Shown here in pieces: positions 3,701 through 17,516 of a DNA stretch of 64,000 nt. The notes beneath the pieces were generated by a model, which did not search any database, had not been told where the DNA came from, and was given only the letters and a program-made list of their open reading frames with translations. Position 1 is the first letter of the stretch. Each line of letters begins with the position of its first letter. Source of the DNA: an uncultured delta proteobacterium (lineage in GTDB: Bacteria > Desulfobacterota > Desulfomonilia > Desulfomonilales > Desulfomonilaceae); assembly GCA_963789265.1 (NCBI GenBank), contig CAWBKB010000001.1, forward strand, positions 2,432,001 through 2,496,000, read 5' to 3'. The position numbers and the translations under genes were made by a program.

Positions 3701-5079
3701 TGGCCCGTATATGCCACCGAGCCGATGTCGGTAACTTTGAGCCCGAGACTCTCTTTAGCCGACTCCTCCAGGAATGAGCCCGTCCCAGCGCTGCACGCTT
3801 CATTCATTGCGTAGTCGCTGGGGACCCCGTTGGTAATGTACGTATATTTCGCATCCTGGCCCCCGATTTCGAAAATGGTATCCACCTGAGGGTCAAAGTG
3901 CACTGCCGCGGCGGCATGCGCTATGATCTCGTTGAGCACGCCGTCGGTCATTGCGTGAAGTCCGGAAATCTGCCGACCCGATCCGGTAACTCCCAATCCT
4001 ATGATGCTTATGGGGACATCAATCTGTTGGGCGAGGCTGCTGTAGACTTTCCGGGAAGCTCCAACCGGATCGCCGTCGGTTCGAAGGTAGTCGGCTGCCA
4101 GTATAGCCTTATCGCGGCAGCGCATGATTACCCCCTTGGTTGTAGTGGACCCCACATCCAGACCCAACACCGTGCGGTCGCCGGCTTCAGCTTTTCCCCG
4201 AGGCCGATCTTCGAAACGGACCATGTGCCGAAATTCCGACAAGGGCTTGAGGTATGAGAAGGCAGACCCTTTATTCTGATAGACATCATCGGGGCCGGTG
4301 TAAGGGACAGTAGGATTATCCAGAGCCCACAAAGCAGCCCCAAGTGCTTCAAAATAGGGAGACTCTTCGGGGATGTGAAGGTCTTCAATCTCCTTGGCGA
4401 GATAATGCATCATGGTCTGATTACGGGATGAACCGCCGACGAGAAGTACAGACTTCTTCGGCAGCTTTTTCAGCAACTCGACCACTTTGGCGGCCATCAT
4501 CTTGGCGAGGCCGGCCACCACCTGCCCCTTCGGGATGCCCTTGTTCAGAGCGTGAGTGCAGTCACTCTTGCAGAAGACGGAACACCGGCCCGAGACCTTG
4601 TGTGGGTGGTCGGATATTCCGAGCTTGGCCACGTCCTCAAGGGTAATGTTCATCCTCCGGATTTGTTGGAGAAAGAACTCACCTGTGCCGGAAGCGCATT
4701 TGTTACCGGTTTGTATTCCCTGGATTTGCCCGTCTTCATCCAGGTGGTACACGAGAAATGTCTCTCCTCCCGCGCTGACGACCACTCGATAAGAATCATC
4801 CTTGCCGAGTATATGTGCCACAGCTCTCTCGACTGCCTCGGGTTCGGATATGGTAGTCAACCTGATAAAATTAATGAATTTTCGTCCAGTGACTGCTATC
4901 GGGATGTCACGAGCTTGAGGGATCTCTTCAAGTGCATCGAGCAGGGTTTTCCTGGGGTTCCCCTCATGGGTGATCGTCGAGGCACCAATTACCTCGATCA
5001 CATCGTCATCCTTGCGCAGGCGCACCATGCCGAGCGTGGAGGCTCCCAAACAAATACCCAGAGCTTCCATGAGCAACAC
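793..5079 (-). CDS. CoA-substrate-specific enzyme activase (two BadF/BadG/BcrA/BcrD ATPase domains plus DUF2229/dehydratase-like domains)
   Basis: GNKCASGTGEF, CSVFCKSD, DVGSTTTK, EIGGQDAK, MNEACSAGTGSF, NFSCGPDS, GPCRFGQY, GPFGCMP. Confidence 0.9.
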   Translation of the reverse strand: MLLMEALGICLGASTLGMVRLRKDDDVIEVIGASTITHEGNPRKTLLDALEEIPQARDIPIAVTGRKFINFIRLTTISEPEAVERAVAHILGKDDSYRVVVSAGGETFLVYHLDEDGQIQGIQTGNKCASGTGEFFLQQIRRMNITLEDVAKLGISDHPHKVSGRCSVFCKSDCTHALNKGIPKGQVVAGLAKMMAAKVVELLKKLPKKSVLLVGGSSRNQTMMHYLAKEIEDLHIPEESPYFEALGAALWALDNPTVPYTGPDDVYQNKGSAFSYLKPLSEFRHMVRFEDRPRGKAEAGDRTVLGLDVGSTTTKGVIMRCRDKAILAADYLRTDGDPVGASRKVYSSLAQQIDVPISIIGLGVTGSGRQISGLHAMTDGVLNEIIAHAAAAVHFDPQVDTIFEIGGQDAKYTYITNGVPSDYAMNEACSAGTGSFLEESAKESLGLKVTDIGSVAYTGQNPPNFNDQCAAFIGSDIKNAAQEGIPVNDIVAGLVYSICMNYSNRVKGNRPVGKKVFMQGGVCYNEAIPAAMSALTGKEIVVPPEPGLMGAFGVALEVERRIAVGLLNEASFDLNRLAARDVVYKNPFVCGGGKEKCDRRCEIARIEIEGKTYPFGGACNRYVNLIRHLEFDKSALDMVDHRQRIVFRDLDAAGVVDNRPTIGMNRSFLVNTYFPFFNAFFKTLGYRLVLPDSVEAAGVDQQGAAFCFPVEIAHGFMANLLDKEPEILFLPHIRGVPTDSENANTCTCVFVQGEAFYLKSTFERLQSKKVVTPYLDLSRGFEPRTDEFIKVALELGRSRADGLRAFREALEAQAACREEMRASGAKMLQELEEDRDALAIVLFGRPYNAFAGEANKGIPAKFASRGYRIIPFDMLPYEDQTFDDEDTMYWSMGRMILKAARFVKNHPRLFGTYISNFSCGPDSFVVGYFREEMGRKPSLTLELDSHTADAGLETRIEAFLDIVRYYVELESKKQLPATRKEFRAAVAAIVDGKPVVATADGRKLALTDPNVRVVLPAMGRFAHQALVQTFKKVGINAHGLPPADDEVLKIGRGNSTCKECLPLQTTVGSMLNYFWRERPSGEVTAYFMPGAGGPCRFGQYNVFSRRLIERYQIPDAAVLTLNSANGYMGLGDRFTLPAWRAIIIGDVMYEIWSTLMAAAADRESALEIFYREWDSLVQVVHRSWKEIRVQIRSSAQTLAGIPLKMPYEEIPKISLIGEIYVRNDPISLQKLVEKMADRGFIVRTSQTSEWIKYVDWLIKNRIEGQPDIPFWIRYFVKRHFDRKIRHLFAPSGLFFHETLYVEDLIHAGEKFVSPMLTGEAILTVGAALHEILHPACGIISIGPFGCMPSRVAESILSEKFTSGEKLALLSQTNGHDRGRKSLLNKNQKLPFLAIETDGNAFPQIIEARLEAFALQSRRLHERMMEAKL

Positions 5080-5213
5080 TCCCTTTTTTGCTTACGGGTG
5101 ATTCTGTATAGGAATAACTTAAACTACTAGTATAAACGAGCCGCACATGACCGGCAAGACTTACTCAGCAAGGCGGGCAAATCGTTAATTCGCGCTGGAG
5201 AATCGCTCCAAAT

Positions 5214-5867
5214 TCAATGAAAGTACTCGTAAATCCCCAGCGTAATCAGAATCAACCCGGAAATTCGGCCGGCAAACTTTCCAAACCAATGCACGCCGGA
5301 ATATTGCCCGAACTCTATCCCAAACCAAATCGTGAGAATGCTAAGTGCCGCTGTGAATGCTACCATCAAGGCCACATCGAGTCTCAACAGGCCCGCGCCG
5401 ATCCCATTGCTCAAATTATTCAACGATAATGCCAGGGCCAGCAAGAATCCTTCCCTCAGGTCGATGTGCCCGGAAAAATCCGCGTCAGCGAGAAATGGAT
5501 GATCGAGAATCGCAAGCATCTTCCTGAGACCCGACTGATTGGAAAGCGTCGTCTCTTGAAACTGCTGGGGCCCATCGCTTTGTAACTCATCCCGTCGAGA
5601 AATCTCCTGAGCAAAGACCCAAACTCCTGTGCCTCCAATCATGAGAGCGCCCAGGGCAGTCGCCACATTTTGATTTATGAGGCGGCCTATTTCGTTGCCG
5701 GCGGCCATCGAAAGATAAGTTCCGAAAGATGTGACGATAGCAATAAGCAAATTAGCGTTGAAAGGGATATTTATCTTTCTGACTCCGTAGGACGTACCAA
5801 CTCCCACGTTATCAAGGTTGCTCGACAGGGCAAGCAAAAAGATAGAAATGATATGTAGATTGGTCAT
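5214..5867 (-). CDS. YtaF/MntP-family membrane protein (putative Mn2+ efflux family)
   Basis: Duplicated motif ALSSNLDNVGVG / ALSLNNLSNGIGAG, about six hydrophobic helices, central ADADFSGHID loop. Confidence 0.8.
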   Translation of the reverse strand: MTNLHIISIFLLALSSNLDNVGVGTSYGVRKINIPFNANLLIAIVTSFGTYLSMAAGNEIGRLINQNVATALGALMIGGTGVWVFAQEISRRDELQSDGPQQFQETTLSNQSGLRKMLAILDHPFLADADFSGHIDLREGFLLALALSLNNLSNGIGAGLLRLDVALMVAFTAALSILTIWFGIEFGQYSGVHWFGKFAGRISGLILITLGIYEYFH

Positions 5868-5884
5868 TCTTCTCTCTAATGAGA

Positions 5885-6298
5885 TTAGCCGGGCGCGCTG
5901 TCTTCGGTCTCGTCCTTCTTTGTGTCGGCCCTTTTTCTCTCTTTATGCTCTACTAATCTCGGTTTCGGATGTGCGTCAGCGCCCGCCCCTTGCGCAGGAC
6001 GTGCCTTTTCCGTCGCCTCCGATTCCTTTTCCTTGACCGCGCTCACTTTCCGAGCCGACGGTCGCTTCTCTTTGCTTACGGCCGCGGACCGCCCTTCCCT
6101 TCGGCCTTCGCAAACCTCCGCGCAAGTTTGCCGTCCCGTTTCGTACAGCAGGAACCCGCTCTTTAGAATCGCCTTTAGCAACGGCCTCACAGTGTACCAT
6201 GCCAACGGCACAACCACAGGCGCTGCGAGTAAACCGGCGCCGACTGCGACACCGGTCCAGATATCGCCACTCTTCGGTCTGAAATCCCAGATTGCCAT
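5885..6298 (-). CDS. DUF5132-like small membrane protein with a basic/charged tail (paralogue of 12856-13122)
   Basis: WTGVAVGAGLLAAPVVVP...RPLLKAILKSGFLLYE closely parallels the 13 kb protein. Start placed at ATG 6298 after a purine-rich RBS. Confidence 0.75.
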   Translation of the reverse strand: MAIWDFRPKSGDIWTGVAVGAGLLAAPVVVPLAWYTVRPLLKAILKSGFLLYETGRQTCAEVCEGRREGRSAAVSKEKRPSARKVSAVKEKESEATEKARPAQGAGADAHPKPRLVEHKERKRADTKKDETEDSAPG

Positions 6299-6383
6299 GT
6301 GCTGCCCCTCTCTACCGGACTGTTTTGGGCGCCACGACACCGCAATCAGGTATGCTATCAGACATAAGGCTGTCGTCAGCCGC

Positions 6384-6411
6384 TGACAATGTCAAGTTAG
6401 GATTCTGTCAA
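6384..6411 (-). promoter_or_regulatory. Possible 11-bp-periodic direct-repeat box upstream of the DUF5132-ytaF unit
   Basis: Minus strand TTGACA-N5-CTAACT-N5-TTGTCA; a weaker match than the other boxes. Confidence 0.35.
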
Positions 6412-6441
6412 TCGCGTTTGTCATGACACCAAATGAAAGAC

Positions 6442-6624
6442 TCAGTCTTCAGTCAACTCGTCAACAATAAGAGAACCGATTTTACTCTCCGCGGCTTCTA
6501 TTTCTTCTATCTCCTTGCAAGTCGTCGGGCTTAGGAGGCCGTAGGTCTCGACGATCTTTTCCAGATATTCGGCGATTACTCGTCCCAGGTGCATCCCCAC
6601 CGACAATCCGATCCAAAACTCCAT
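6442..6624 (-). CDS. Small protein with N-terminal GxxxGxxxG helix and acidic tail
   Basis: MEFWIGLSVGMHLG...; GGGGA upstream of the ATG; co-oriented with the cluster genes. Confidence 0.5.
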   Translation of the reverse strand: MEFWIGLSVGMHLGRVIAEYLEKIVETYGLLSPTTCKEIEEIEAAESKIGSLIVDELTED

Positions 6625-6750
6625 GATGTTTCCCCATAAGGTCTGAGATGTGAGAGGCCCGCGCCGTAGCGATTTACCAGCCCCACGCGGCGCGCTGAGC
6701 CAGTCCTACCGCGTATATGCCGGGTATGCTGTACCTGCCGGCCAGGTCTA

Positions 6751-6841
6751 ATACCGATTCGCATTCAGAATCCCCCCGTCCCCCCTTTACTAAAGGAGGG
6801 TTAGAGGGGATTTTCTCACAATCTTGAAAGCGAATCGGTAT
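6751..6841. mobile_element. MITE-like element with 17-bp terminal inverted repeats, enclosing a CCCCCTTT/AAAGGAGGG palindromic repeat
   Basis: ATACCGATTCGCATTCA / TGAAAGCGAATCGGTAT (16/17 match). Related ends occur near 20868, 28614, 33598 and 56293. Confidence 0.7.
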
Positions 6842-7008
6842 AAAACCGGACGAGCAGCCTTCCCGACGAAGAGTTGCTTTCCGGTCTTACCCCATTGTCG
6901 CCACAGTCCCTCGCCCCATGTAGACATTTTGCGGACCCCAACACGGCGTCGCAAGCCTAAGATCATGCAAAGACATGAAATCCTCAAAGAAGACTTCCAC
7001 ATTAAGAA

Positions 7009-7037
7009 TTAATTTGTTGCTAATACTAGCCTAACAT
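7009..7037 (+). promoter_or_regulatory. 11-bp-periodic direct repeats (OmpR/PhoB-type box) upstream of the HMA2-like gene
   Basis: TTAATTT (7009), CTAATAC (7020), CTAACAT (7031). Confidence 0.5.
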
Positions 7038-7129
7038 TTTGTCGGCATTAGTTTAAACAGATTCATACGACGAAATTCCTCGTCGTCCAAATAGTCGTAC
7101 TGCTGGTCAGAATCCAAAGGGAGAAAGGC

Positions 7130-7501
7130 ATGAGCTATTATCTCCACGACGTGCCGGGGCGTATGAGAATCCAGATTCCGGCGTTGAAGAGGAATTCCGA
7201 ACGGGCGCAAGATGTTCAGGAGCTGTTGGACAGCCTCTCGGGCGTCAAATCGACCTCCGTGAACCCTGTTACAGGGAGTGTGATAGTTCTTTACGATCCG
7301 CAAGTAGTGCATTCTTCGACCATTCTGACACTTCTTTCCAGGGAAAGGCACATTGACATCGCAAGAATAATCTCAAGCCGTCAACATCTCGAGGCTGGCC
7401 TTTCCAAGGCGGGCCGCGCAGCGTCCAAAGCCCTCATAGGTATCGCATTGGATCTAGCGTTAGAGGGTTCTCCCTTATCGATTCTCACAGCCTTCATTTA
7501 G
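7130..7501 (+). CDS. HMA2-like (Cys-less heavy-metal-associated fold) protein
   Basis: YLHDVPGRMRI...GVKSTSVNPVTGSVIVLYDP; RBS GGAG. Confidence 0.8.
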   Translation: MSYYLHDVPGRMRIQIPALKRNSERAQDVQELLDSLSGVKSTSVNPVTGSVIVLYDPQVVHSSTILTLLSRERHIDIARIISSRQHLEAGLSKAGRAASKALIGIALDLALEGSPLSILTAFI

Positions 7502-7522
7502 AGTTTCCCGCTAAAATAGGCC

Positions 7523-7680
7523 GCACCTAAATTCGCTCCTTGTCCCCAATTCTCGAGCGGGCGCAGCATCCTGCGCCCCCACCTTCGTAACGTGACTGGC
7601 CTCTTGGTGGCGACGGGCATCTTGCCCGTCATTTCTAATGGACAGGCTGGAAGCCTGTCCCACCAATCTAAATTCGGTGC
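7523..7680. repeat. Cluster of short palindromic REP-like repeats between convergent genes
   Basis: GGGCGCAGCATCCTGCGCCC, GACGGGCATCTTGCCCGTC and GGACAGGCTGGAAGCCTGTCC, bracketed by GCACCTAAATT / AAATTCGGTGC. Confidence 0.7.
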
Positions 7681-7751
7681 CAACTCTCTCGAAAACCACT
7701 ATAAACGAATTTCGATGCGGTCCGCGGTCGTTGATGAAACGCGCCGAGCAA

Positions 7752-8942
7752 CTACGACCTTAGTAGATCTGCTTTGTCGGTGGCCTCCCACGGCAAATCC
7801 ATATCTGTCCGTCCGAAATGCCCATACGCGGCAAGTTTGCGATAGAAGCCATCACTGGACATCGATGGTAGCTTTGTCAAATTGAATTGTCTGACAATCC
7901 CGCCTAGCCTGAAATCGAAATGCTTCTCCACAAGGGCACTGATTTTGTCATCGGAAAGCTTGCCCGTTCCCATAGTCTCAACCTGGATGCTGACCGGCCC
8001 TGAAAGTCCTATCGAATAGCTAAGCTGGACCTCGCACTGTTCGGCAAGCCCTGCGGCGACAACATTCTTGGCCGCGTAACGAGCTGCATACGCACCGACC
8101 CTGTCAATTCTTAACGCATCTTTTCCGCTCAGAGCCGATCCGCTGTTTCTGGAATAACCTCCGTAAGTGTCGATGGCATTCTTTCGACCTGTCAGTCCTG
8201 AGTGCACCGACGGCCCGCCCATTTTCAAAGGGCCTCCCGGATTGATCAGGATACTGGTGTTCCCGTCAGGGACTATAGGCTCACCCTCAAATGCCTCTTT
8301 TATGACCGTTTCCATCACATCGTCTCGAAGTCGGTCCAGTTTGGGATGGGTCCGATCTATCTGGCTTGAATTGATCGTGATACTGTGGATCCTGTGCGGA
8401 ATGCGATTGTCGTATTCGACTCCGACCTGGGTGGTGCCGTCAGGCGCCAAGTATGGCAATACGCCTTGCAGCCTCACCTCGGAGAGCCTCTTCGAAAGCT
8501 TGTGGGCAAGCCATATCGGAAGCGGCATAAGCGTCGGTGATTGATTGCAAGCAAAACCGAATAACGTTACCTGGTCGTATGCCACGACTCTATCTATGTC
8601 CTCTTCGGACACATCGTCTTCGGCAACCAGGCAGTGCTGCTCCGGCGTCATTTCTTTGAGGCTGGTCAATATGCTGCAAGTCTTGAAGTTGAATTCATGG
8701 TCAATGTACCCGATCCGCCGGATAACCTTTCTGGCCACATTAGGAAAATCGACCTTCACGCCGGATGCAAATCTTGCAGCAATGAACACCACTGACAGTG
8801 ACACTGCGCACTCGGCGATAACCCGGGCGCATAAGTCATGCTCGAGAAAACGGTCTATGATGGCATCGCTTATCTGATCGCACAGCTTGTCCGGGTGTCC
8901 TTCGGTGACCGATTCGGACGTGTGGATGAAGTGCTTTTTCAT
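7752..8942 (-). CDS. Divergent S-adenosylmethionine synthetase (MetK) paralogue
   Basis: TSESVTEGHPDK, GLTGRK, DTYGG, SGKD and AAYGHFGR are present, but GAGDQG is VAYDQV and the substrate residues are changed. Start overlaps the ATPase stop (ATGA, 8939-8942). Confidence 0.85.
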   Translation of the reverse strand: MKKHFIHTSESVTEGHPDKLCDQISDAIIDRFLEHDLCARVIAECAVSLSVVFIAARFASGVKVDFPNVARKVIRRIGYIDHEFNFKTCSILTSLKEMTPEQHCLVAEDDVSEEDIDRVVAYDQVTLFGFACNQSPTLMPLPIWLAHKLSKRLSEVRLQGVLPYLAPDGTTQVGVEYDNRIPHRIHSITINSSQIDRTHPKLDRLRDDVMETVIKEAFEGEPIVPDGNTSILINPGGPLKMGGPSVHSGLTGRKNAIDTYGGYSRNSGSALSGKDALRIDRVGAYAARYAAKNVVAAGLAEQCEVQLSYSIGLSGPVSIQVETMGTGKLSDDKISALVEKHFDFRLGGIVRQFNLTKLPSMSSDGFYRKLAAYGHFGRTDMDLPWEATDKADLLRS

Positions 8943-11900
8943 TTGTTGTCCGCCGATGTTTTTTTGGTGACTTCGTTTATGAGCAGAGGAACTACTGACG
9001 CAGCCCCGATTACCAACCCGTCAAAAAGTGTTATCGGGGTTGTGCCCAGCAGTGTTCTCAGCCCGGGAACAAGCTGAGAAGCCAGTTGCAGCCCGAGTGA
9101 GCCAACGACCGCCACATTAAGATATTTATTCGGCGCGGATTTCCGGCGATCGAAGATGGTGCGCGTCTCTGAACGACAACTCACGGCGTGCAGGATCTGA
9201 GACGTGGTAAGGCTTTGAAATGCCAACGTACCCGCGGCCGGGCCCATGCCGTATTTCATAACACCGTATCCGTACGCGGCAAGCGAAGTCGCGGTCATCG
9301 TCGCAGCCTCGAAGCCAATTCTCTTGAAGTCGTTTGTCTTCACAATAGGCGCGGTGGAATCCCGCGGCGGGTGACTCATTACGTCAGGTTCCGCAGGTTC
9401 CAAAGCCAAGGCAAGTCCCGGGAATATGTCCGATACAAGGTTGATCCAGAGCAGTTGCATGGCATTAAGAGGGTATCCCAGTCCTAGAGCGCCTGCGACA
9501 AACATTACTTGGATTTCGCTGAAGTTGGTGGCAAGAAGATATCGGAGCGTCTTTCTGATATTATTGTAAATTGTTCGCCCATCACTTATCGCGATGATCA
9601 AGGTCTCCAGGTCGTCTTCTTCAAGCACCACATCAGCCACGTCTCGAGCCACATCAGTTCCAGCCCGCCCCATTGCTATACCAATGTCCGCGGCCTTGAG
9701 TGCAGGCCCGTCGTTAATGCCGTCGCCGGTCATGGCCACCACCTTGCCGGAACTCTGAAGGGCCTGAACAATCTGGAGCTTATTCGACGGGCTGACCCTG
9801 GAAAAGACGTGGACCTCCTTGCTCAGAGCTTTTAATACCGCAGGCTCGGTGGTTGTCAGGTGTGTCGAATCCAGGATTTCCAGCGGCCTGCCGTTGCTGA
9901 GCCCCAATTCCTTTCCCACAGCATACGCGGTCGGGCTCTGGTCTCCGGTGACCATCACAGTTTCCAGCCCCGCTTCATGAAACACCACTATGGATTCTTT
10001 GACTCGATTCCGGATAGGGTCGGCCATGCCGACCAGGCCCAACCAAGTGAAGCCATTCTCTGTCTCCGAGTGCTCATCGGAATTCCGGACGGCGAACGCG
10101 ACCCCCAGCACCCGCAATGCATTGCCGGCCATATTGTCATTTTCGGCTTCGACAATGTCTCTGTCCTTATCGGTAAGCGCGATGGCAGCCCCATTCCGGA
10201 TCTGATATTTGCACTTGGCGAGGACTTCTACGGGATTCCCCTTCAAAGCCACCAATACTTCCTTATCCGCGTATACGTGTTCAGTAACCATGAATTGGCG
10301 ATCATCGGACCGATACTGAATATTCAACACCGGATGTTGATCCCTTAGTGCCCGAACGTCAATGCCGCCGTTAATCGCCATGTAGATCAGAGCGTTTTCG
10401 GTTGGGGAGCCATTCAAAACGTACTGCCGATCTCTGAACTCGATTTGAGTCTCATTGCAGAGCACGCATATATGAATGAGTTTCAAGACCTCGTCGGACT
10501 GGGAGGGGTCAAATAGCTTTTCGCGGCTATAGAAGCTATTTTCACTTATCCGTATCTTCTCCATCCCGGAATAAATCGTCAGCACGGTCATTCGGTTATG
10601 GGTAATTGTGCCGGTTTTATCGAAACATATCGTCTGGACCGAGCCTAGCGTACAGATTGCATCGAGATTCCTTATGAGGACTTTGTGCTTCCTCATATTA
10701 TTGATCCCAAGCGCAAGCGTGGTCGTCGCAACAGCCGGCAGTCCTTCGGGAACTGCCGCGACGGCAAGAGAGATGGCTGTCTTGAGCATCTGAAGAAAGC
10801 CGTTCCCCCTGATGAGCCCCATAAAGAAAACTAACCCGCAGACGGCCCCGGAGATCAATACCAGTTGGTTGCCGATCTTCGTCAACTGTCGCTCTACGGG
10901 GGTTTCCGGGGCTTCGGCTTCAGCAAGAAGACTTTGGATCTTGCCTACTTCCGAGAACATGCCGATTGCTACGACAACCGCCAACCCCTGGCCCCCGGTG
11001 ATGAGCGTGCCCGAATAAACCATGTTGGTCCGGTCCGCGAGGGGAACCTTGGGGCCCTTAAGCGGAGATGAATTCTTGGACACCGGCATGCTTTCACCGG
11101 TGAGCACCGACTCGTCCACGGTAAGACGGGTTGCCTCGATAATTCTCGCGTCCCCTGTCACATACGTCCCTGGTTTCAGCAAAAGGATATCCCCCACGAG
11201 GACCTGTTCCGCGGGGATTTCCTGCAAACTGCCTTCCCGTATTACCTGTGCGGTTGGGCGGATCAACCTCTTCAACGAGCTTATTGTCTTTTCCGCTTCA
11301 TTTTCCGTAACAAAGCCGATTGCCGCGTTAATGCCCACCACAACCACAATTATGACGGCATCCGCAAGCCCCCCAGTAACCACGGAAAGACCGGCAGCCG
11401 CAGCCAGGAGCGCGACCGGGAAAGAGTTGAATTGATCGAAGAAAATGCCCAGCTTGGAGCGAGACAGAGGCTCGGGAAGAACATTAAGGCCGTATTCGCG
11501 GCGATTTTCCTGGGAGGCTTGGGCTGACAAGCCTCGTTTTCTGGAGGATTTCAGCGATGAAAGGACGAATTTCACATTGAGCAGGTGCCAGGGTTTAGAC
11601 TTATGAGCTTTGGAGAGGCCATACTCCGGCCGATCTTTCCCGGTGCGAACAACCCTGAGATCGGTTACAACGGCGAGTGCACCGACTTCAGTAGAGCCGG
11701 GGCCGCCCTTGGCCTCGTTATCCCTGGTCTCTCGCAGATAGGCTATCACAACACTCTCCACGCTCAGGGCTATCTTGCGAGGATTACAGTCAGGATTGAA
11801 AATTACCAGCACGTTTCCGGTCAAAATGTTGGCCGAAACGCGCCTGACGTCTTCGTCCTGCGGGAGTAACATTTCCAAGCGGTATTTGAGTGACACGCAT

Positions 11901-11965
11901 CGATAGAGGCCTTCGACTTTGTATCGCACTCTGCCCGGAATATGGTTATGAACTGTTTCTAACAA
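8939..11965 (-). CDS. Type-IIA-like (Ca2+/Mn2+-class) P-type ATPase with an N-terminal HMA2-like domain
   Basis: LTGES, AVPEGLP, DKTGT, TGDGIND, TM5 ATNFSE, TM6 WINLVSD. N-terminus VHNHIPGRVRYKV...VSANILTGNVLVIFNP. Confidence 0.92.
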   Translation of the reverse strand: MLETVHNHIPGRVRYKVEGLYRCVSLKYRLEMLLPQDEDVRRVSANILTGNVLVIFNPDCNPRKIALSVESVVIAYLRETRDNEAKGGPGSTEVGALAVVTDLRVVRTGKDRPEYGLSKAHKSKPWHLLNVKFVLSSLKSSRKRGLSAQASQENRREYGLNVLPEPLSRSKLGIFFDQFNSFPVALLAAAAGLSVVTGGLADAVIIVVVVGINAAIGFVTENEAEKTISSLKRLIRPTAQVIREGSLQEIPAEQVLVGDILLLKPGTYVTGDARIIEATRLTVDESVLTGESMPVSKNSSPLKGPKVPLADRTNMVYSGTLITGGQGLAVVVAIGMFSEVGKIQSLLAEAEAPETPVERQLTKIGNQLVLISGAVCGLVFFMGLIRGNGFLQMLKTAISLAVAAVPEGLPAVATTTLALGINNMRKHKVLIRNLDAICTLGSVQTICFDKTGTITHNRMTVLTIYSGMEKIRISENSFYSREKLFDPSQSDEVLKLIHICVLCNETQIEFRDRQYVLNGSPTENALIYMAINGGIDVRALRDQHPVLNIQYRSDDRQFMVTEHVYADKEVLVALKGNPVEVLAKCKYQIRNGAAIALTDKDRDIVEAENDNMAGNALRVLGVAFAVRNSDEHSETENGFTWLGLVGMADPIRNRVKESIVVFHEAGLETVMVTGDQSPTAYAVGKELGLSNGRPLEILDSTHLTTTEPAVLKALSKEVHVFSRVSPSNKLQIVQALQSSGKVVAMTGDGINDGPALKAADIGIAMGRAGTDVARDVADVVLEEDDLETLIIAISDGRTIYNNIRKTLRYLLATNFSEIQVMFVAGALGLGYPLNAMQLLWINLVSDIFPGLALALEPAEPDVMSHPPRDSTAPIVKTNDFKRIGFEAATMTATSLAAYGYGVMKYGMGPAAGTLAFQSLTTSQILHAVSCRSETRTIFDRRKSAPNKYLNVAVVGSLGLQLASQLVPGLRTLLGTTPITLFDGLVIGAASVVPLLINEVTKKTSADNK

Positions 11966-12040
11966 CTGATTAGCCTTGTCTCGGCGGGCTCGCCCTACCT
12001 CATGAAAACGCGAGACGCCTGCTTTAGTCCTCTACTAGTT

Positions 12041-12254
12041 CTGGTTCCCAGGTTGTGCCATATAGGGGCTAACTTAACGATTTCCCCCCCTTCGTAAAGG
12101 GGGGTTAGGGGGGATGTTTGTCTAACTCCTTGAAAATCCCCCCTAATCCCTCTTTAGAAAGGAGGGACTTTGATGGCCCTTAGCCCGTTGGACCTCTTCA
12201 GAGATATCGAGATGCTCTTAAGTTAGCACCTATCAGGCAGAGCCCGGGAACGAG
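12041..12254. repeat. Nested repeat: GTTCCCAGG-family palindrome > MITE-like IR pair > CCCCCCTT/AAAGGGGGG repeats
   Basis: Outer CTGGTTCCCAGGTTGTGCC / GGCAGAGCCCGGGAACGAG; inner ATAGGGGCTAACTTAA / TTAAGTTAGCACCTAT. Confidence 0.75.
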
Positions 12255-12305
12255 AAACGCTTAAGTTAAGCTACTTAGCAATATATTGACGCCAACGCGA
12301 TGCTT

Positions 12306-12827
12306 TCAATCTCCATTTGCATCGTCCGCTTCCAATGCAAAGTCTTCCCCTTCGTCCCACTCCTCAATCTGTGCTCGCGTGAATACGCCCAACGCGTAAT
12401 AAAATGCCGTGTACCATGCAGGCATGACAATATTTCCTCGTGCAATCTGCCAGACTCCGGAAATTACCAGGCTGAGAAAAATGAGACTGGGAATATCGAC
12501 TTCGCCGCCGGTCGCATTCTTAAGATATCTATTATACACTTGAAACGTATCGGCTACATTGGTGAAAAGAGGCTTCTGTGGCCGTCCGGAGCGTCCCAAA
12601 ACAAACAGCTCGTTTTCTCTCGCAAAGTCAGCGATGGTCTTTCTTTCGCCTTCGTAGGAAATCAGGGCGCTTCCTATGTTAGGATTCACCCTGATTTCCT
12701 TTACCCCGGGGCAGCCGGAAAGCCGCTCCATCAAATTAGAAAAATATGAGACATCCCTTCTCTTAGAAGGAATCTTGATTCTTAGCCTGCGGGCCATCCG
12801 ATGAGACACATGAGCCTTCGGAATCAT
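12306..12827 (-). CDS. HMA2-like domain protein with C-terminal membrane helices (FezC-like architecture)
   Basis: HVSHRMARRLRIKIP...GVKEIRVNPNIGSALISY, then hydrophobic LIFLSLVISGVWQIARG...PAWYTAFYYALG and an acidic tail. Confidence 0.8.
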   Translation of the reverse strand: MIPKAHVSHRMARRLRIKIPSKRRDVSYFSNLMERLSGCPGVKEIRVNPNIGSALISYEGERKTIADFARENELFVLGRSGRPQKPLFTNVADTFQVYNRYLKNATGGEVDIPSLIFLSLVISGVWQIARGNIVMPAWYTAFYYALGVFTRAQIEEWDEGEDFALEADDANGD

Positions 12828-12855
12828 TTCTCCTCTCTTTGGTTCCCGTGTTCGT

Positions 12856-13122
12856 CTAAGCTCCTTTTGTCTTCGCCGGAGTCAGCTCAGCCTGCACTTC
12901 AGACTTCGCTTCGGCAGCCAGATCTTCTACTACCTCTGCGACCTCGGCAATCATTTCTCTGCATTTTTCGTAGAGCATTAAGCTGCCCTTTATGCCCGCC
13001 TTTGCAACCGGCCTTGCCGCGGTGGCTATCATCGGAATTACCACGGGGGCTACGAGTAAGCCCACCCCGATCGCGACGCCAGTCCACACACTGCCTTTAG
13101 GTGTGAAATTCCAACTGGCCAT
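12856..13122 (-). CDS. DUF5132-like small membrane protein (GxxxG helix plus amphipathic helix)
   Basis: TGVAIGVGLLVAPVVIP...RPVAKAGIKGSLMLYEK...EDLAAEAKSE; strong RBS AAGGAGG. Confidence 0.85.
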   Translation of the reverse strand: MASWNFTPKGSVWTGVAIGVGLLVAPVVIPMIATAARPVAKAGIKGSLMLYEKCREMIAEVAEVVEDLAAEAKSEVQAELTPAKTKGA

Positions 13123-13205
13123 TTGACGCCTCCTTCTTTCCGATCGTTCGGTAGGTCATCAACCTACTATAATAGCGTAAATCATTTCCCAGATTATGTC
13201 TATTT

Positions 13206-13233
13206 TGTTAGCTTATCATTAGCATTGTGTTAA
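13206..13233 (-). promoter_or_regulatory. 11-bp-periodic direct repeats upstream of the DUF5132-HMA2-ATPase-metK unit
   Basis: Minus strand TTAACA-N5-CTAATG-N5-CTAACA. Confidence 0.55.
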
Positions 13234-13364
13234 AAATGACGGCTTCGAGAAGTATTTTTAGAAATTCATTTTCCTGTACGGCCCCGGACCTGCTGAAAGT
13301 CGCTCAACCCCTTTGCTGAAGAGGAACGGCGAATCCGAAAGGGATGCAAAATTCTTCCCCCGAA

Positions 13365-13393
13365 TTTAACACCTTTTTAACATTTGTCTAATC
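13365..13393 (+). promoter_or_regulatory. Pho-box-like 11-bp-periodic direct repeats facing phoB
   Basis: TTTAACA (13365), TTTAACA (13376), TCTAATC (13387). Confidence 0.55.
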
Positions 13394-13971
13394 GTAGCTC
13401 AACAATCTTTGTTGAGAATGACTTCGCGGATTAATTCTCCCCGGCGGACAAAGGACGATTTACCGCACGGCCCCCCACAACTGTTAATCGACGGCTGAGC
13501 GGGATCGGTGTCTCTTCCGGCCACCGGGGTCTCCTCGACTCGGAGCATTTTTTCGAGAGCGGCGGCATAAGGTCCCCGCACTGCATTGCCCCTTGGCTCG
13601 CTGCCTTCGTATCCCCGGGGAAACGCATACTCGGCGCGCGAGGGAGATATTTGTTTTGTTCGCAATGACCAGGAGGAAATATAACTTGAATCTCCATACT
13701 TCTAGCCGAGATTTCGGCATTGTGCCTCTAATAGATCGCGATATTGCACTAGGGGAGTCCACGGAGATTCGACAAGTTCGTCGCTGTACAGACTTTGACG
13801 TATCGATAGAGATTCGTCTGTTGGTTAGCTTGTGATGACGGTAGGGAGGTCGGCGGGCTCGCCATCCCGTCAGCCAGTGGTGGTGAGCCCCCTCCCAATC
13901 CACTGCCGGCCTCCCAACATTTCTGGCTTTCCAAACACGTGTAATGCAAGGCAGAGAACAAGCGGGTGTGA

Positions 13972-14661
13972 ATGGCCAAAGAAAAAGTTCTAGTCGTCGA
14001 TGACGACGAAGATATCTTAGAGCTGGTAACGTACAATCTGACAAAGGAAGGGTATCACGTTTCTTCAGTTCTTTCCGGGGAACAGGCTTTAAAGAAGGCA
14101 AAGGAGGAACACCCTGACGCAATACTGCTCGACCTCATGCTGCCCGGGGTAGATGGCCTGGATGTCTGCCGGGAATTGAAGAACGATCCTGCTACCAGGT
14201 ACATACCCGTTCTGATGGTAACCGCAAAAGGAGAGGATGCCGACATAGTCAGCGGCCTGGAATTGGGTGCGGACGATTACATCACCAAACCTTTCAGCCC
14301 CCGAGTCCTTTTGGCCCGCCTGAAAACCGTTCTACGGCGGAACAAGCCTCAAGAGTCTGAAGAGCTCGCGGTCGTGAACCTGCACGGCCTCACCATCGAT
14401 CCTAACCGTCACCAGGTCCTCCTTGAGAGGATGCCCATCGTTCTCACCACCACGGAGTTCAGGATCCTTCATTTTCTGGCGCGGCGCCCCGGTCGAGTCT
14501 TCAGCCGAGACCAGATAATAAACGCGGTGAAGGGGGAGAATTATGCTGTAACGGAGCGCTCTGTCGACGTACAAATTGTTAGTCTGAGAAAGAAGCTCGG
14601 CAGGTTTGGAGACGCGATAGAGACGGTCAGAGGGGTGGGCTATAGGGTGAAAGAGGAGTAG
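13972..14661 (+). CDS. phoB: OmpR/PhoB-family response regulator (PhoB/PhoP-like)
   Basis: VVDDDED, LLDLMLPG, GADDYITKPFS and winged helix IETVRGVGY; adjacent to phoU. Confidence 0.85.
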   Translation: MAKEKVLVVDDDEDILELVTYNLTKEGYHVSSVLSGEQALKKAKEEHPDAILLDLMLPGVDGLDVCRELKNDPATRYIPVLMVTAKGEDADIVSGLELGADDYITKPFSPRVLLARLKTVLRRNKPQESEELAVVNLHGLTIDPNRHQVLLERMPIVLTTTEFRILHFLARRPGRVFSRDQIINAVKGENYAVTERSVDVQIVSLRKKLGRFGDAIETVRGVGYRVKEE

Positions 14662-14880
14662 TGTTTGTTCAGCGGATTATCGGGATTCACGGTCCTGCAA
14701 GACGCGCGATTGCCGTGAACGAATACCATGCGCGCCGTACCGGCACAGACCGGATAGTAGGATGGCCCACCGCATCGCCGGGCGGAAAGAACAGAATTCT
14801 CCGCGATCTCAACGTTCTCTGCGGTGAACTGTTGCTGAGAAGAAACGTCACTTGGCAAAACCGCGAGGAAGGAACGATGA

Positions 14881-15594
14881 ATGAGGATAAGACTGCAGAA
14901 GGACATTGACAGGTTGAAAGAGAGGATTGTTTCACTAGGGACTCTGGTGGAAGAGCACTTTCGCGTGGCGATCAAAGCCATCCAAAATCTGGATGCCCAG
15001 TTGGCCAAGACTGTCATTGATGGTGATATAGAGGTTGATCGGCTGGAGATTGATGTTGAGGAGGATTGCCTGAAGATTCTGGCCCTTCACCAGCCCGTTG
15101 CAGACCAGTTGCGGTATATAGTGGCGATACTGAAGATGAACAATGATTTGGAACGAATAGGGGATTTAGCTGTCAATATTGCCGAGCAAGCGGAAGCTAT
15201 CGCTCGCGACGAGCGACAGGTCTTAGCATTTGACTATCTGACCATGGGACAGAAGGCCGAGGAAATGCTGAAGAAGAGCCTCGATTCCCTCATAAATACC
15301 GATCTTCGCTTGGCTTACGAGGTATTGAGCCGAGACGACGACGTTGATGCCATGAAAAATGCGATCGAGGCCCAGTTCGCGCAGGAGATGTGCAAGTCCA
15401 AGGGAGATCCTGCATCCCTGATCAACTTGTTCCTGGTCTCACGTCATCTCGAACGCATAGCCGACCATGCCACCAACATTGCGGAAGACGTGATATATCT
15501 GATCACAGGCGAGATCCACAGGCACCGAGGAGCGGTGGTCATACGAGGCAGCGATAGCTGGTTTAGTAAATCGGACGAGCACGAACTGGGCTGA
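14881..15594 (+). CDS. phoU: Phosphate signalling protein PhoU
   Basis: LALHQPVADQLR, DLERIGDLAVNIAE, HLERIADHATNIAEDVIY. Confidence 0.95.
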   Translation: MRIRLQKDIDRLKERIVSLGTLVEEHFRVAIKAIQNLDAQLAKTVIDGDIEVDRLEIDVEEDCLKILALHQPVADQLRYIVAILKMNNDLERIGDLAVNIAEQAEAIARDERQVLAFDYLTMGQKAEEMLKKSLDSLINTDLRLAYEVLSRDDDVDAMKNAIEAQFAQEMCKSKGDPASLINLFLVSRHLERIADHATNIAEDVIYLITGEIHRHRGAVVIRGSDSWFSKSDEHELG

Positions 15595-15643
15595 CGAACG
15601 GGCAATAGAAACCCGGAAGCAGCGGTTCCCGAACATGATTCGC

Positions 15644-16969
15644 TCATTTCCTCGGCACTGATGCGTCGGTCGCAGACTCAATACCGGACGCGACCTCGGG
15701 TAGAATCCCCTTTGTGACGTAGGTTGGACGGGCCTTCTCTCGCAAGTGCGGAAGCCTGCGGGCAAAGACTCCGGCGCCGACCATGCACGCAACTCCCCCG
15801 ATAAGTACGGTCCACGGGGCACCAATCGCACCGGCCAGTGCGCCTGCCAGCAAACTGCCAACAGGGGCCATTCCTATAAACGCGACCGTGTAGAAGCTCA
15901 TGACCCGTCCCCGCCGGTCGTCGTCCACCATAGTCTGCAACAGTGTGTTGCTCGCTGCCAATTGGATCATCTGGCCGAAACCCACCCCGGCCACCAACGC
16001 CAACGACCAAAACATGTTGTGTGACAGGGAGAAACCCACAAGCCCAAGGCCGAATATGGCCGCGCCGGTGGGGATCATTTTGCCCAGCCCCAGAACACCT
16101 CTTCTAGAGGCCAGGTACAAAGCTCCTGCCAGAGCTCCTACTCCGGAGCCTCCCATCAAGAATCCCAGTGCATCGGGGCCTCCATGCAAGACATCTTTGG
16201 CAAAGACGGGCATGAGCACGATGTAAGGCATTCCCATCAGGCTAACCAGGGCGAGCAGCAAGATAATATCCCGAATAGGCTCGAAACCGTATACATACCG
16301 AAAACCCTCCTTTAAGTCATGCCATGCTCTCGACTTTTGTGCTCTGAAATTCTGGCGCACAATCCTCATCATAAGCAAAGAGACTATTACGGCCAAGTAG
16401 CTCAATCCATTGATAAGAAAACACATTCCTTCTCCCACAGCGGAAATGAGCAACCCGGCTATGGTCGGCCCCAAAAGGCGCGCGCAATTGACCATAGACG
16501 AATTCAAGGCAATGGCATTCCCCAAGTCGGTCTTTTCTTCAATCATCTGGATCATGAAAGATTGACGCACAGGCATGTCAAATGCACTGACAACTCCTAA
16601 GGCCAGGCTTAATGCCACAATGTGCCAGATCATTATAGTTCCGGTCAGAACAAGATAGGATAAGACGAAAGCCTGCAACATTGCGAGCACTTGCGTCCAA
16701 ATCAGCAACTGGTGGCGATTCCAACGATCGGCCAGCACACCTGCAAAGGCAGCCAAAACGAAAATGGGGATTTGTCCCGCAAATCCAACGACTCCCAAAA
16801 GAAAAGCAGAATGCGTGAGTCGATAAACCAGCCATCCCACGGCAATGCGTTGCATCCAGGTGCCGACGAGAGAAACGCCCTGTCCGACAAAGTACAGTCT
16901 GAAATTGCGATAGCGCAGTGCGCGAACAATGGGCCGAAGCGGCCGCTTGTCTTTCTGATTCATTTGCAC
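15644..16969 (-). CDS. MFS transporter (MFS_3/DUF894-like)
   Basis: RNFRLYFVGQGVSLVGTWMQ, GVLADRWNR, RGRVMS; about 12 TM helices. Confidence 0.92.
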   Translation of the reverse strand: MQMNQKDKRPLRPIVRALRYRNFRLYFVGQGVSLVGTWMQRIAVGWLVYRLTHSAFLLGVVGFAGQIPIFVLAAFAGVLADRWNRHQLLIWTQVLAMLQAFVLSYLVLTGTIMIWHIVALSLALGVVSAFDMPVRQSFMIQMIEEKTDLGNAIALNSSMVNCARLLGPTIAGLLISAVGEGMCFLINGLSYLAVIVSLLMMRIVRQNFRAQKSRAWHDLKEGFRYVYGFEPIRDIILLLALVSLMGMPYIVLMPVFAKDVLHGGPDALGFLMGGSGVGALAGALYLASRRGVLGLGKMIPTGAAIFGLGLVGFSLSHNMFWSLALVAGVGFGQMIQLAASNTLLQTMVDDDRRGRVMSFYTVAFIGMAPVGSLLAGALAGAIGAPWTVLIGGVACMVGAGVFARRLPHLREKARPTYVTKGILPEVASGIESATDASVPRK

Positions 16970-17060
16970 GGTCCCTTACAGGTAGTATATGACATATTTC
17001 CGCTGAGACAGTCGCGCGCGGGCGGGGTTGCCTGTCTTCATGCTCGCGTATTCGGGGCAA

Positions 17061-17109
17061 TGTAGAGGCGACCGGCGGTCGCCCAGGGCGAATGCCATTC
17101 GCCTCTACA
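17061..17109. repeat. GTAG-type REP doublet related to 270-341
   Basis: TGTAGAGGCGACCGGCGGTCGCCC-AGGGCGAATGCCATTCGCCTCTACA. Confidence 0.8.
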
Positions 17110-17455: not shown

Positions 17456-17516
17456 GGCGCAATGACAGTCGTTTACCGTTCGTAACTGAATGATTCCTTA
17501 CACCAGCTCATTGTTC

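Follow-up and report, generated by a model that had tools for sequence, protein, structure and literature searches.

The fezABC genes of Desulfovibrio magneticus, in the available sections of the report on them, encode a hydrophobic GxxxG protein (FezA), a P1B-6 ATPase (FezB) with the motifs D[Y/F]SCA and HNxxT, and a protein annotated as HMA at its N-terminus that has two transmembrane (TM) helices (FezC); FezB also carries an N-terminal RxR or RxRxR 'R-rich' motif, which recurs in other proteins of that cluster (bioRxiv 10.1101/2020.01.10.902569). The neighbourhood of the ccyA gene in Microcystis aeruginosa PCC 7806 holds, according to the accessible text, two DUF5132 genes, two CoBaHMA genes and a Ca2+/H+ exchanger gene; the adjoining DUF5132 gene, a CoBaHMA-DUF454 gene and the exchanger gene are co-expressed with ccyA, and the carbonate inclusions sit in a compartment (bioRxiv 10.1101/2024.07.07.602159). 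The CoBaHMA domain, which corresponds to Pfam HMA_2 (PF19991), was first described in calcyanin, a marker of intracellular amorphous calcium carbonate in cyanobacteria (PMC8890360; bioRxiv 10.1101/2024.07.07.602159); as defined in the sections available, it has an HMA fold with an extra first strand (beta0) that bears a conserved histidine, a conserved basic patch, and no CxxC motif (PMC8890360). In this work, we analysed a stretch of 64,000 nucleotides (hereafter the window) from an uncultured delta proteobacterium of the Desulfomonilaceae (assembly GCA_963789265.1, contig CAWBKB010000001.1). The gene cluster at positions 5214-15594 of the window suggests a metal-handling system that has not been described: a fez- and ccyA-like module built on a pump of probable Ca2+/Mn2+ class, with a MetK-derived partner and operators of its own.

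Gene calls in the window combined open reading frames (ORFs) with Pfam and NCBIfam profiles, by which eleven genes were found in the region 5214-15594. An earlier note, made from the letters of this stretch alone, had listed the genes of the region, and every one of them was found where that note had placed it. The features that make up the module are as follows.

12856-13122, minus strand: DUF5132 protein, first copy, 88 aa (Pfam PF17195, 38.8 bits against a cut-off of 25, E 9.6e-10)
12306-12827, minus strand: CoBaHMA (HMA_2) membrane protein, 173 aa (Pfam PF19991, 58.3 bits against a cut-off of 30, E 1.2e-15)
8939-11965, minus strand: cation ATPase of P2A type, 1008 aa, with a TTG start (NCBIfam, Pfam)
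11708-11965, minus strand: predicted N-terminal CoBaHMA domain of the ATPase, about residues 1-86 (hhalign, AlphaFold2 (AF2) model, Foldseek)
7752-8942, minus strand: MetK-like protein, 396 aa (TIGR01034, 376 bits against a cut-off of 309)
7130-7501, plus strand: small CoBaHMA protein, 123 aa, with a hydrophobic C-terminus (Pfam PF19991, 54.2 bits, E 2e-14)
6442-6624, minus strand: 60-aa GxxxG protein with an acidic tail (no family matched)
5885-6298, ORF reaching 6340, minus strand: second DUF5132-type protein, with a long basic tail (Pfam, 17.2 bits against 25, E 0.0055)

The first minus-strand unit consists, in order of transcription, of the DUF5132 gene, the 173-aa CoBaHMA gene, a 340-nt spacer, the ATPase gene and the MetK-like gene. 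The 173-aa CoBaHMA gene begins 28 nt after the DUF5132 gene and has its own ribosome-binding site. The stop codon of the ATPase gene and the start codon of the MetK-like gene overlap as ATGA, which indicates that the MetK-like gene is translationally coupled to the pump gene. The small CoBaHMA gene and the MetK-like gene converge, and beyond the former a second minus-strand unit carries the 60-aa protein, the second DUF5132-type protein and, 17 nt further on, a YtaF-type gene.

The recurrence of this arrangement was determined by a genome scan with the pump, which gave 15 loci, all in metagenome-assembled genomes (MAGs) of Desulfomonilaceae, with pump identities of 66-88%. Gene content was established by BLASTP of the window proteins against all locus ORFs, and Pfam was run on 88 flank ORFs of seven loci. 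The neighbourhood to which the earlier note had pointed does recur: the pump, with the MetK-like gene directly downstream, was present in 15 of 15 loci. The first DUF5132 gene lay upstream of the pump in 14 of 15, the remaining locus (L010) being a 3.3-kb contig that begins within the pump. The small CoBaHMA protein was found in 13 of the 15 loci, the 173-aa CoBaHMA protein with its TM segment (CoBaHMA-TM) in 10, the second DUF5132 protein in 9 and the 60-aa protein in 7 (52-85% identity). The conserved core thus comprises DUF5132, CoBaHMA-TM, the CoBaHMA-fused P2A pump, the coupled MetK-like gene and the divergent small CoBaHMA gene. The flanks vary by locus and include PAS histidine kinases, phosphatidylserine decarboxylase-like genes, a PstS-like gene and a phosphonate-binding protein, among others; since they differ between loci, the core travels as a block. 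The nearest relatives of both the pump and the MetK-like protein are labelled Desulfomonilaceae.

In L003 (8995-9843), DUF5132 and CoBaHMA-TM form a single ORF of 282 aa, which is either a natural fusion or a sequencing frameshift. The MAG MFD01689.bin.2.77 holds two copies of the cluster, of which one (L012) is intact and the other (L006) has a frameshifted pump, a 46-aa remnant of the MetK-like gene and no small CoBaHMA gene.

The context beyond the Desulfomonilaceae was drawn from one plasmid, one pair of consecutive accessions and coincidences of contig size. In a tblastn search of plasmids, one pump aligned from residue 1, that of Microvirga sp. VF16 plasmid pMVF16-1 (locus L016; 43% identity), so that core parts of the cluster are also found on a plasmid. 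Two DUF5132 genes precede the pump of L016, and an HMA_2 gene on the opposite strand, a DUF445 gene and a second HMA_2 gene follow it. Farther upstream, on the same strand and 663 bp from the DUF5132 genes, are two genes with CYTH domains (triphosphate tunnel metalloenzyme), and the enzymes they encode may be functional stand-ins for the MetK-like protein (noted coordinates in L016, 5728-7339 and 12711-14009, for the CYTH genes and for the DUF445 gene between the HMA_2 genes). In the same plasmid search, the DUF5132 protein was unmatched, the 173-aa CoBaHMA protein matched Microvirga only, and the MetK-like protein matched canonical metK only, at up to 48.8% identity, among the best 12 of 186 records. 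A Nitrospiraceae MAG carries the MetK-like protein and the pump under consecutive accessions (HCC68868.1 and HCC68869.1). For 24 of the 119 non-self MetK-like clusters, the longest contig was identical in size to that of one of 119 non-self pump clusters, several of these contigs being only 4-9 kb; the shared sizes are an indirect sign that the two genes are co-located. The relatives that could be named come from Nitrospirota, Dissulfurispiraceae, Syntrophobacteraceae, a Planctomycetota-labelled MAG and a Richelia-labelled MAG.

The upstream regions of the cluster were searched for repeated patterns, and three operator-like elements were found in the window.

13206-13233, minus strand: operator-like three-hexamer array before the first DUF5132 gene (pattern search)
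7020-7036, plus strand: operator-like pair CTAATA-N5-CTAACA before the small CoBaHMA gene (pattern search)
13366-13382, plus strand: operator-like pair TTAACA-N5-TTAACA facing phoB (pattern search)

The array before the first DUF5132 gene reads TTAACA-N5-CTAATG-N5-CTAACA, with 11-bp spacing, and is followed by a TAGACA hexamer resembling a -35 element. The pattern BTAAYR-N5-BTAAYR-N5-BTAAYR matched the window only at 13206-13233 and gave 0 matches in 100 shuffles. The two-hexamer pattern YTAAYA-N5-YTAAYA matched the window at the two pairs listed above, with 0.01 matches expected. A looser regular-expression form of the array was matched before the first DUF5132 gene not only in the window but also in 10 of 14 loci. 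The exact three-hexamer pattern had 11 matches in the loci, 8 before DUF5132, 1 before the small CoBaHMA gene and 2 at a distant second site; from a position weight matrix scan of 748,252 positions, a weaker site in L012 was added, and L003 and L014 each had a second strong one. For the small CoBaHMA gene, 12 upstream regions were examined, of which 11 contain two or more hexamers with the 11-bp spacing. It is well supported by these patterns that the two units would be co-regulated through shared operator-like arrays. A scan for sigma-70 promoters and terminators gave counts not above chance.

The distant copies of the operator lie at L003:2235-2262 and L014:2179-2206, about 6.7 kb upstream of the cluster and before a small ORF. 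Beyond this site are a gene for an 841-aa protein without a Pfam match, a phosphatidylserine decarboxylase-like gene and an LGT-like gene. A phosphatidylserine decarboxylase-like gene, together with a GT4 glycosyltransferase gene, also lies upstream in L007. Lipid-remodelling genes may belong to the same regulon as the cluster.

Direct repeats with an 11-bp periodicity are typical of regulators of the OmpR/PhoB family. The arrays look more similar to the Bacillus PhoP box, TT(A/T/C)ACA with spacers of about 5 bp, and to cyanobacterial Pho boxes, which resemble CTTAACCT, than to the PhoB boxes of E. coli and D. vulgaris. These two boxes are given as CTGTCAT and as (c/t)GTnAC with 4-bp spacers, respectively (PMC3333781). 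Since the hexamers differ from both quoted boxes, the name 'Pho box' is not justified for them, and that identity was rejected. The weak leads to phosphate are the phoB-phoU genes adjoining the cluster in the window and in L001, a PstS-like gene in the L012 flank, a phosphonate-binding gene in the L003 flank and the two CYTH genes of L016; phosphate may control the cluster, for which the conserved direct repeats are indirect support.

A chance juxtaposition or an annotation artefact would explain the cluster if small hypothetical ORFs had merely accumulated here, and the general frequency of such ORFs is all that speaks for it. Against it, the order and orientation of the genes are conserved in 15 loci with unrelated flanks, genes of the cluster recur on an alphaproteobacterial plasmid, the operator arrays are shared and did not arise in the shuffles, and the small proteins are conserved in sequence. 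The conserved loci, the Microvirga plasmid, the shared operators and the conserved small proteins therefore refute a chance origin, to which we assign next to no probability. We are confident that the cluster is a real functional module and not a chance neighbourhood.

The pump was compared with models and structures of characterized P-type ATPases. Its best NCBIfam model was the PMR1-type TIGR01522 (623.5 bits, under the equivalog cut-off of 798.3), and the SERCA-type TIGR01116 was also among the best models and also under its equivalog cut-off; the score for the heavy-metal model TIGR01525 was 248.9 bits. Since no NCBIfam equivalog cut-off was reached, the pump represents a separate subfamily. 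Cation_ATPase_N and Cation_ATPase_C domains were detected, and the closest solved structures were human SPCA1 (E 9e-143) and Listeria LMCA1 (E 4e-138). Across 46 aligned relatives, the motifs TGES, PEGLP (406-410, in TM4), DKTGT (449-453), TGD and GDGIND were invariant, as were the putative ion ligands N814 and E817 in TM5 and N842 and D846 in TM6. The pump thus resembles SPCA1 (ATP2C1), PMR1 and LMCA1 in its catalytic motifs and in the ligands E (TM4), N/E (TM5) and N/D (TM6), and differs from them in a 125-residue extra N-terminal region that includes a CoBaHMA domain, in Q923, which aligns with an Asp of SPCA1, and in its dedicated accessory genes. By these residues and relatives, the pump is probably a P2A ATPase of the Ca2+/Mn2+ class, in agreement with the earlier note. 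Pumps of the SPCA1/LMCA1 type remove Ca2+ or Mn2+ from the cytoplasm at the expense of ATP.

The public gene call for the pump (P0001, 977 aa) begins 31 codons late, leaving out window positions 11873-11965 and with them the first two strands of the CoBaHMA domain. We placed the start at the TTG codon at 11965 because conservation extends through residue 1. A precomputed match to PF19991 was present in 78 of the 120 listed pump relatives; among the 42 others, the nearest may share the late-start problem or have weak profile scores.

The three CoBaHMA domains of the cluster were then compared with one another. CoBaHMA architectures have reportedly been described by Gaschignard et al. in 2024 (Proteins). 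The two free proteins, which the earlier note had called HMA2-like, scored above the Pfam cut-off (54.2 and 58.3 bits against 30). The N-terminus of the pump scored 21.7 bits (E 2e-4), under that cut-off; when twelve pump N-termini were aligned with nine free CoBaHMA proteins by hhalign, the probability was 96.4% (E 1.3e-9). An AF2 model of the pump N-terminus (mean predicted local distance difference test score (pLDDT) 82.9, from a 16-row alignment) had an HMA-like beta-alpha-beta-beta-alpha fold with an extra first strand, its strands being at 2-6, 12-17, 40-46 and 51-56 and its helices at 24-36 and 62-86. In this model, H6 lies in the extra strand 2-6, R12 and R14 lie in strand 12-17 and are followed by R22, and the domain contains no CxxC; among 46 pumps, G11, R12, R14 and R22 were invariant and H6 nearly so. 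Foldseek superposed the model onto the HMA domains of ATP7B, CopA, CopZ and MerP with a root-mean-square deviation of 1.4-1.8 A over 61-63 columns, at weak E-values (about 1e-3 to 3e-2) at which RNA polymerase subunit L/Rpb11 ranks alike. In its extra strand, its basic residues and its lack of CxxC, the modelled N-terminus of the pump is a CoBaHMA domain, which bears out the HMA2-fused ATPase of the earlier note. An RxR motif is present in all three domains (GRVRYKV, GRMRIQI and RRLRIKI). The 173-aa protein, in which this motif reads RRLRIKIP, covers positions 9-151 of the 154 in the PF19991 profile, has an acidic tail, and shows one clear hydropathic segment (110-128) and a weaker second stretch, which may together form a C-terminal hydrophobic hairpin.

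The remaining helpers are small GxxxG membrane proteins. The first DUF5132 protein has one hydrophobic segment with GVAIGVG (GxxxGxG), followed by an acidic helix. Both DUF5132 proteins share the N-terminal block MAIWDxRPK..WTGVAxGxGLLxAPVV, with GxxxGxG in the single hydrophobic segment, and diverge thereafter into the acidic helix of the first and the long basic tail of the second. The second protein, under the Pfam cut-off, is by this block a clear paralogue of the first, so that the pair of DUF5132-like proteins recognized in the earlier note stands; its start is likely the internal Met, because conservation begins at MAIWDF. The third small GxxxG protein of that note is the 60-aa protein, conserved in 7 of 15 loci. 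It begins with FWIGLSVGMHLG, a tandem GxxxG, and ends in an acidic tail; its conserved start is EFW(I/V)GLSVGMHLG. No family was matched in Pfam or NCBIfam, and the best Protein Atlas score, 0.78, was to phage hypotheticals and under the useful level. The GxxxG motifs of the three proteins (GVAIGVG, GVAVGAG and GLSVGMHLG) are conserved across loci. As far as families could be assigned, the small proteins of the cluster therefore fall where the earlier note expected them, in DUF5132 and HMA_2.

The MetK-like protein contains all three MetK domains and passes the TIGR01034 cut-off. Its identity is about 45-49% to solved and plasmid-borne MetK enzymes and 66-94% to at least 119 clusters of its own kind. 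In every locus with both genes unbroken, it is more conserved than the pump (for example, 94 versus 88%, 87 versus 75% and 78 versus 68%). We aligned 118 MetK-like members of at least 380 aa (of 120 listed) with E. coli MetK (b2942), using the numbering of the mature enzyme. H14, D16, K17, E42, R244, K245, K265 and D271 were kept in 118 of 118 members, and D163 in 117. Four replacements were fixed in all 118: E55 to R, D238 to H, C239 to S and K269 to R. Q98 was M in 93 members and L in 21, K165 was T in 96 and K in 16, F230 was L in 101, G120 was V in 116, and D118 was D in 72, E in 28 and N in 17; the GAGDQG loop of MetK reads xAxDQV in this family. We take E55, Q98 and D238 to hold methionine in the E. 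coli enzyme, and H14, D16, R244, K245, K265, K269 and D271 to serve the C5'-O5' cleavage and the triphosphate/Mg site. In place of the methionine-holding residues, the family has basic or hydrophobic ones. Relative to MetK (E. coli b2942; PDB 7r3b and 1fug), the protein thus keeps the three-domain fold, His14, the Mg ligands and the triphosphate cage, and differs in the fixed E55R, D238H, C239S and K269R, in the change of Q98 to M or L, in its separate clade and in its coupling to a pump in the loci seen.

A scan of 1.84 billion representatives returned 17,727 relatives of the MetK-like protein. Of the best 150 representatives (at 50% identity), 92 keep E55, D238 and K269, and 24 carry H238, in most cases combined with R269 and with either R or H at position 55. 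A tree was built from the 107 of 152 rows that had 360-470 aa, with 45 left out; in it, 17 of the 18 H238 rows and one other non-canonical row fell on one side of a branch with a Shimodaira-Hasegawa-like approximate likelihood ratio test (SH-aLRT) value of 99. Given this strong constraint and the old H238 clade, the MetK-like gene is not a degenerate copy: the earlier note was right about the translational coupling and wrong about the degeneracy. The residue pattern and the tree instead indicate an old, constrained clade with a remodelled substrate pocket, which appears to be neofunctionalized.

Considering its score, the protein might still be a working S-adenosylmethionine (SAM) synthetase isozyme that supplies SAM locally for lipid or protein methylation tied to the system. 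It passes the metK model at 376 bits against 309, has all three MetK domains and keeps His14, D16, K245, K265 and D271. However, all 118 members carry E55R, D238H, C239S and K269R, and the family has lost Q98 and the GAGDQG loop. By comparison, E55, D238 and K269 are intact in 92 of the 150 best representatives, and the scanned flanks contained no conserved methyltransferase. We judge such an isozyme highly improbable, and it is likely, from the residues, that the MetK-like protein does not make SAM. Most likely, its substrate or sensed ligand is ATP, tripolyphosphate or short polyphosphate, or else it transfers adenosyl to an acceptor that is not methionine; the candidate chemistries are the hydrolysis or sensing of tri- or polyphosphate and adenosyl transfer to an acceptor without an alpha-amino group. 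No solved structure of the H238 type was present in the two PDB alignments inspected, and among the matches listed in a literature search on methionine adenosyltransferase paralogues and tripolyphosphatase, a bacterial pump-linked MetK was not found.

Three chimeric ORFs join parts of a pump and a MetK-like protein: P0242, P0243 (NJO57609.1, from a Richelia-labelled MAG) and P0332. Both parts are internally truncated in each, and a Rosetta-stone fusion was rejected, the junctions being at differing internal points of both genes. These ORFs are probably deletions, truncations or assembly products. They count as evidence of adjacency only, and place the gene pair in a cyanobacterium-labelled MAG as well.

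Compared with fezABC, the cluster corresponds one-to-one in its described architecture, in that FezA matches the DUF5132 protein, FezC the 173-aa CoBaHMA protein and FezB the pump, as far as the available account of fez goes. To the same extent, the two share an RxR motif in the pump and accessory proteins, with further R-rich proteins in the cluster, and both are found among anaerobes. The differences are that the pump here is a P2A ATPase with PEGLP and that a MetK-like enzyme is added; moreover, the fez system builds an organelle, whereas the cluster here is known from its genes alone. The description of the cluster as ferrosome-like in the earlier note thus holds for the architecture of GxxxG protein, HMA-TM protein and RxR-bearing pump, as fezABC is described in the text available, and the likeness does not extend to the P1B-6 pump or the iron genes.

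The ccyA neighbourhood offers a second comparison, which the earlier note had missed. In the available description, both it and the present cluster have two DUF5132 and two CoBaHMA genes beside a transporter of calcium or of the calcium class, with one CoBaHMA protein bearing a C-terminal helical hairpin, which is putative in the present cluster. They differ in that the ccyA neighbourhood, as described there, has a Ca2+/H+ exchanger instead of a P-type pump and no MetK-like gene, and in that the organisms here are non-photosynthetic anaerobes. A Pfam scan of the window recognized no calcyanin (GlyZip) gene, and no search aimed at calcyanin was made. Since the ccyA neighbourhood combines DUF5132, CoBaHMA and a Ca2+/H+ exchanger, the calcium-linked precedent is at least as close as the iron one. 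A literature search found no paper naming both 'ferrosome' and 'calcyanin'. Overall, the interpretation in the earlier note is partly supported.

Gene content, conservation, coupling, residue patterns and shared operators are observed, and from these we infer the ion, its destination, the chemistry of the MetK-like protein and the control by phosphate. The reading that we favour, which falls a little short of an even chance as a whole, is a co-regulated module of pump, helpers and MetK-like protein. An OmpR/PhoB-type regulator, possibly the adjacent PhoB, would activate both promoters. The pump would sit in the membrane together with the DUF5132 proteins, its targeting or gating being provided by its own CoBaHMA domain and by the free CoBaHMA proteins. 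By analogy with ferrosomes and carbonate inclusions, it would fill a membrane-delimited store with Ca2+ or Mn2+; alternatively, the ion would be moved across the cytoplasmic membrane. The MetK-like enzyme would tie the pumping to the phosphate-anhydride pool of the cell. An internal store, as opposed to plain efflux, is argued for by analogy and seems to us possible rather than probable.

Several observations weigh against this reading. Bacterial P2A pumps such as LMCA1 are typically plain efflux pumps of the cytoplasmic membrane. A compartment, granule or mineral has no support here beyond analogy, and no report of inclusions in Desulfomonile was found among the papers listed. Genes for Fur, DtxR, Feo or ferritin-like proteins were found neither in the window nor in eight flanks (those of seven Desulfomonilaceae loci and L016), and a P1B-6 pump, as in fez, is absent. 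The hexamers match neither the E. coli nor the D. vulgaris PhoB box, phoB and phoU adjoin the cluster in just 2 of 16 genomes (the window and L001), and the PhoB-like regulator scores under its equivalog cut-off. Among the MAG loci, the pump is frameshift-broken in L004, L006, L014 and L015, and the MetK-like gene is frameshifted in L013 and L014 and reduced to a remnant of 46 aa in L006. The Microvirga locus has no MetK-like gene, and in Desulfomonile tiedjei DSM 6799 the pump and the MetK-like protein, of which one each was identified (AFM22950.1 versus AFM23731.1), are not neighbours. Finally, the MetK-like protein passes the NCBIfam metK cut-off and, with His14 kept, its adenosyl transfer may survive.

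Part of this evidence bears on plain efflux or homeostasis of Ca2+/Mn2+ at the envelope, with the pump in the cytoplasmic membrane and no internal compartment, an explanation that we hold to be entirely conceivable if not probable. The N-terminal CoBaHMA domain of the pump would then be a lipid-sensing or autoinhibitory regulator, the DUF5132 and 60-aa proteins would be small regulatory subunits as phospholamban and sarcolipin are for SERCA or KdpF is for Kdp, and the MetK-like protein would be a sensor of nucleotide or triphosphate. Such a role fits with the closest solved relatives of the pump, which are ordinary Ca2+/Mn2+ pumps, with the presence of an MntP-family gene (a family of Mn2+ exporters) at the end of the cluster, of which the window and L001 have different members, with the published CoBaHMA hypothesis, which in the text available is one of regulation via anionic lipids, and with the fact that inclusions are undocumented. 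However, five or six conserved accessory membrane proteins would be unusual for an efflux pump, and the two contexts found in which the pairing of helpers is discussed, fez and ccyA, are both, in the sections available, membrane-bounded intracellular mineral bodies. Moreover, DUF5132 accompanies a Ca2+/H+ exchanger in the Microcystis neighbourhood and so is not confined, as a subunit, to pumps of the P type.

The favoured module could be extended to a fez-like, membrane-bounded or membrane-attached storage body for Ca- or Mn-phosphate in Desulfomonilaceae and Nitrospirota, with a PhoB-type switch and a MetK-derived enzyme for tripolyphosphate or short polyphosphate; we regard this more specific proposal as unlikely. 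In such a body, the CoBaHMA domains would use their basic patches to anchor the pump and its partners on an anionic phase of polyphosphate or lipid. The DUF5132 proteins would shape or mark the membrane, and the unrelated CYTH enzymes of Microvirga may fill the role of the MetK-like protein. If this were true, CoBaHMA, GxxxG/DUF5132 and a cation transporter would form a general kit for metal storage, of which the iron, the carbonate and the present system would be three versions.

The genes at the two ends of the region were assessed separately.

5214-5867, minus strand: YtaF-type membrane protein of the MntP family (TIGR02840, 154.6 bits against 149.6)
13972-14661, plus strand: PhoB-like response regulator (TIGR02154, 260.6 bits, under the cut-off of 296.2)
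14881-15594, plus strand: PhoU (194.5 bits against a cut-off of 130)

The phoB-like and phoU genes are divergent from the cluster and begin 850 bp upstream of the first DUF5132 gene. The YtaF/MntP-family protein of the earlier note is confirmed by its profile score. YtaF was found in 0 of the 15 loci by blastp and tblastn, and PhoB with PhoU in 1 of 15 (L001, the closest relative); a PhoB-like regulator (61% identity over 165 aa) is present in L009. The earlier note had counted YtaF and phoB-phoU among the members of the cluster, and this part of it does not stand. YtaF appears, from its distribution, to be a lineage-specific add-on outside the core, and YtaF and phoB-phoU together look like local additions, with PhoB a candidate regulator only. 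At the position of YtaF, L001 has a different MntP-type gene (16078-16644; PF02659, E 4e-35; MntP NF008546, 67.9 bits). In this exchange, one member of the family takes the place of another that is not its orthologue where the cluster ends, which hints at manganese.

These genes would be integral if all eleven, YtaF and phoB-phoU included, formed a phosphate-controlled system for a Ca/Mn/Mg-phosphate compartment, with an inactive MetK as a passenger or scaffold. All of the genes are present, YtaF lies only 17 nt behind the second DUF5132 gene, a hexamer pair faces phoB, and the architecture is fez-like. However, the distribution of YtaF (0 of 15 loci) and of phoB with phoU (1 of 15) speaks against it, the MetK-like protein belongs to a constrained, old clade and so is not degenerate, and both the phosphate mineral and the compartment rest on analogy. 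We consider it improbable that the system takes this form.

The toolkit of GxxxG and R-rich/CoBaHMA proteins has a biological context in ferrosomes and in the calcyanin neighbourhood only, and the present cluster joins it to a third type of transporter. Its occurrence around a P2A pump suggests that metal stores are built or served in a general, modular manner. The deep MetK-like clade, in which the methionine ligands are charge-reversed and the triphosphate site is intact, is a target for enzyme discovery. Since Desulfomonile tiedjei DSM 6799 is cultured and has both a CoBaHMA pump and a MetK-like protein of this clade (WP_014808885.1), these ideas are directly testable.

Additional features of the window were also recorded. 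Long palindromic elements with G-runs and C-runs, of the repetitive extragenic palindrome or miniature inverted-repeat transposable element type, are located at 12023-12177, about 6759-6806 and 17211-17319. Between the CoBaHMA-TM gene and the pump, the spacer of 340 nt (11966-12305) folds at -132.6 kcal/mol (z = -5.76). Since this spacer is only about 130 nt in L001, the palindromic element in it looks like an insertion in this genome. No riboswitch or known RNA was detected when positions 4800-17600 were searched with Rfam at E up to 1, the only matches being weak ones of microRNA type on the palindromes; since no Mn, Mg or SAM riboswitch was among the results, riboswitches do not point to any particular ion or ligand.

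Directly downstream of the cluster, positions 793-5079 of the window encode a 1428-aa fusion of two BcrAD/BadFG-type ATPase domains with DUF2229, of the CoA-enzyme activase type, which is syntenic in L001 only (95% identity). The remainder of the window is ordinary chromosome, with riboflavin genes, dnaK-grpE, an ABC-2 transporter and cyclases. An integrase/transposase (rve) at 58822-60171, unrelated to the cluster, lies amid repeated adenylate-cyclase/AAA/TPR genes (52290-62905).

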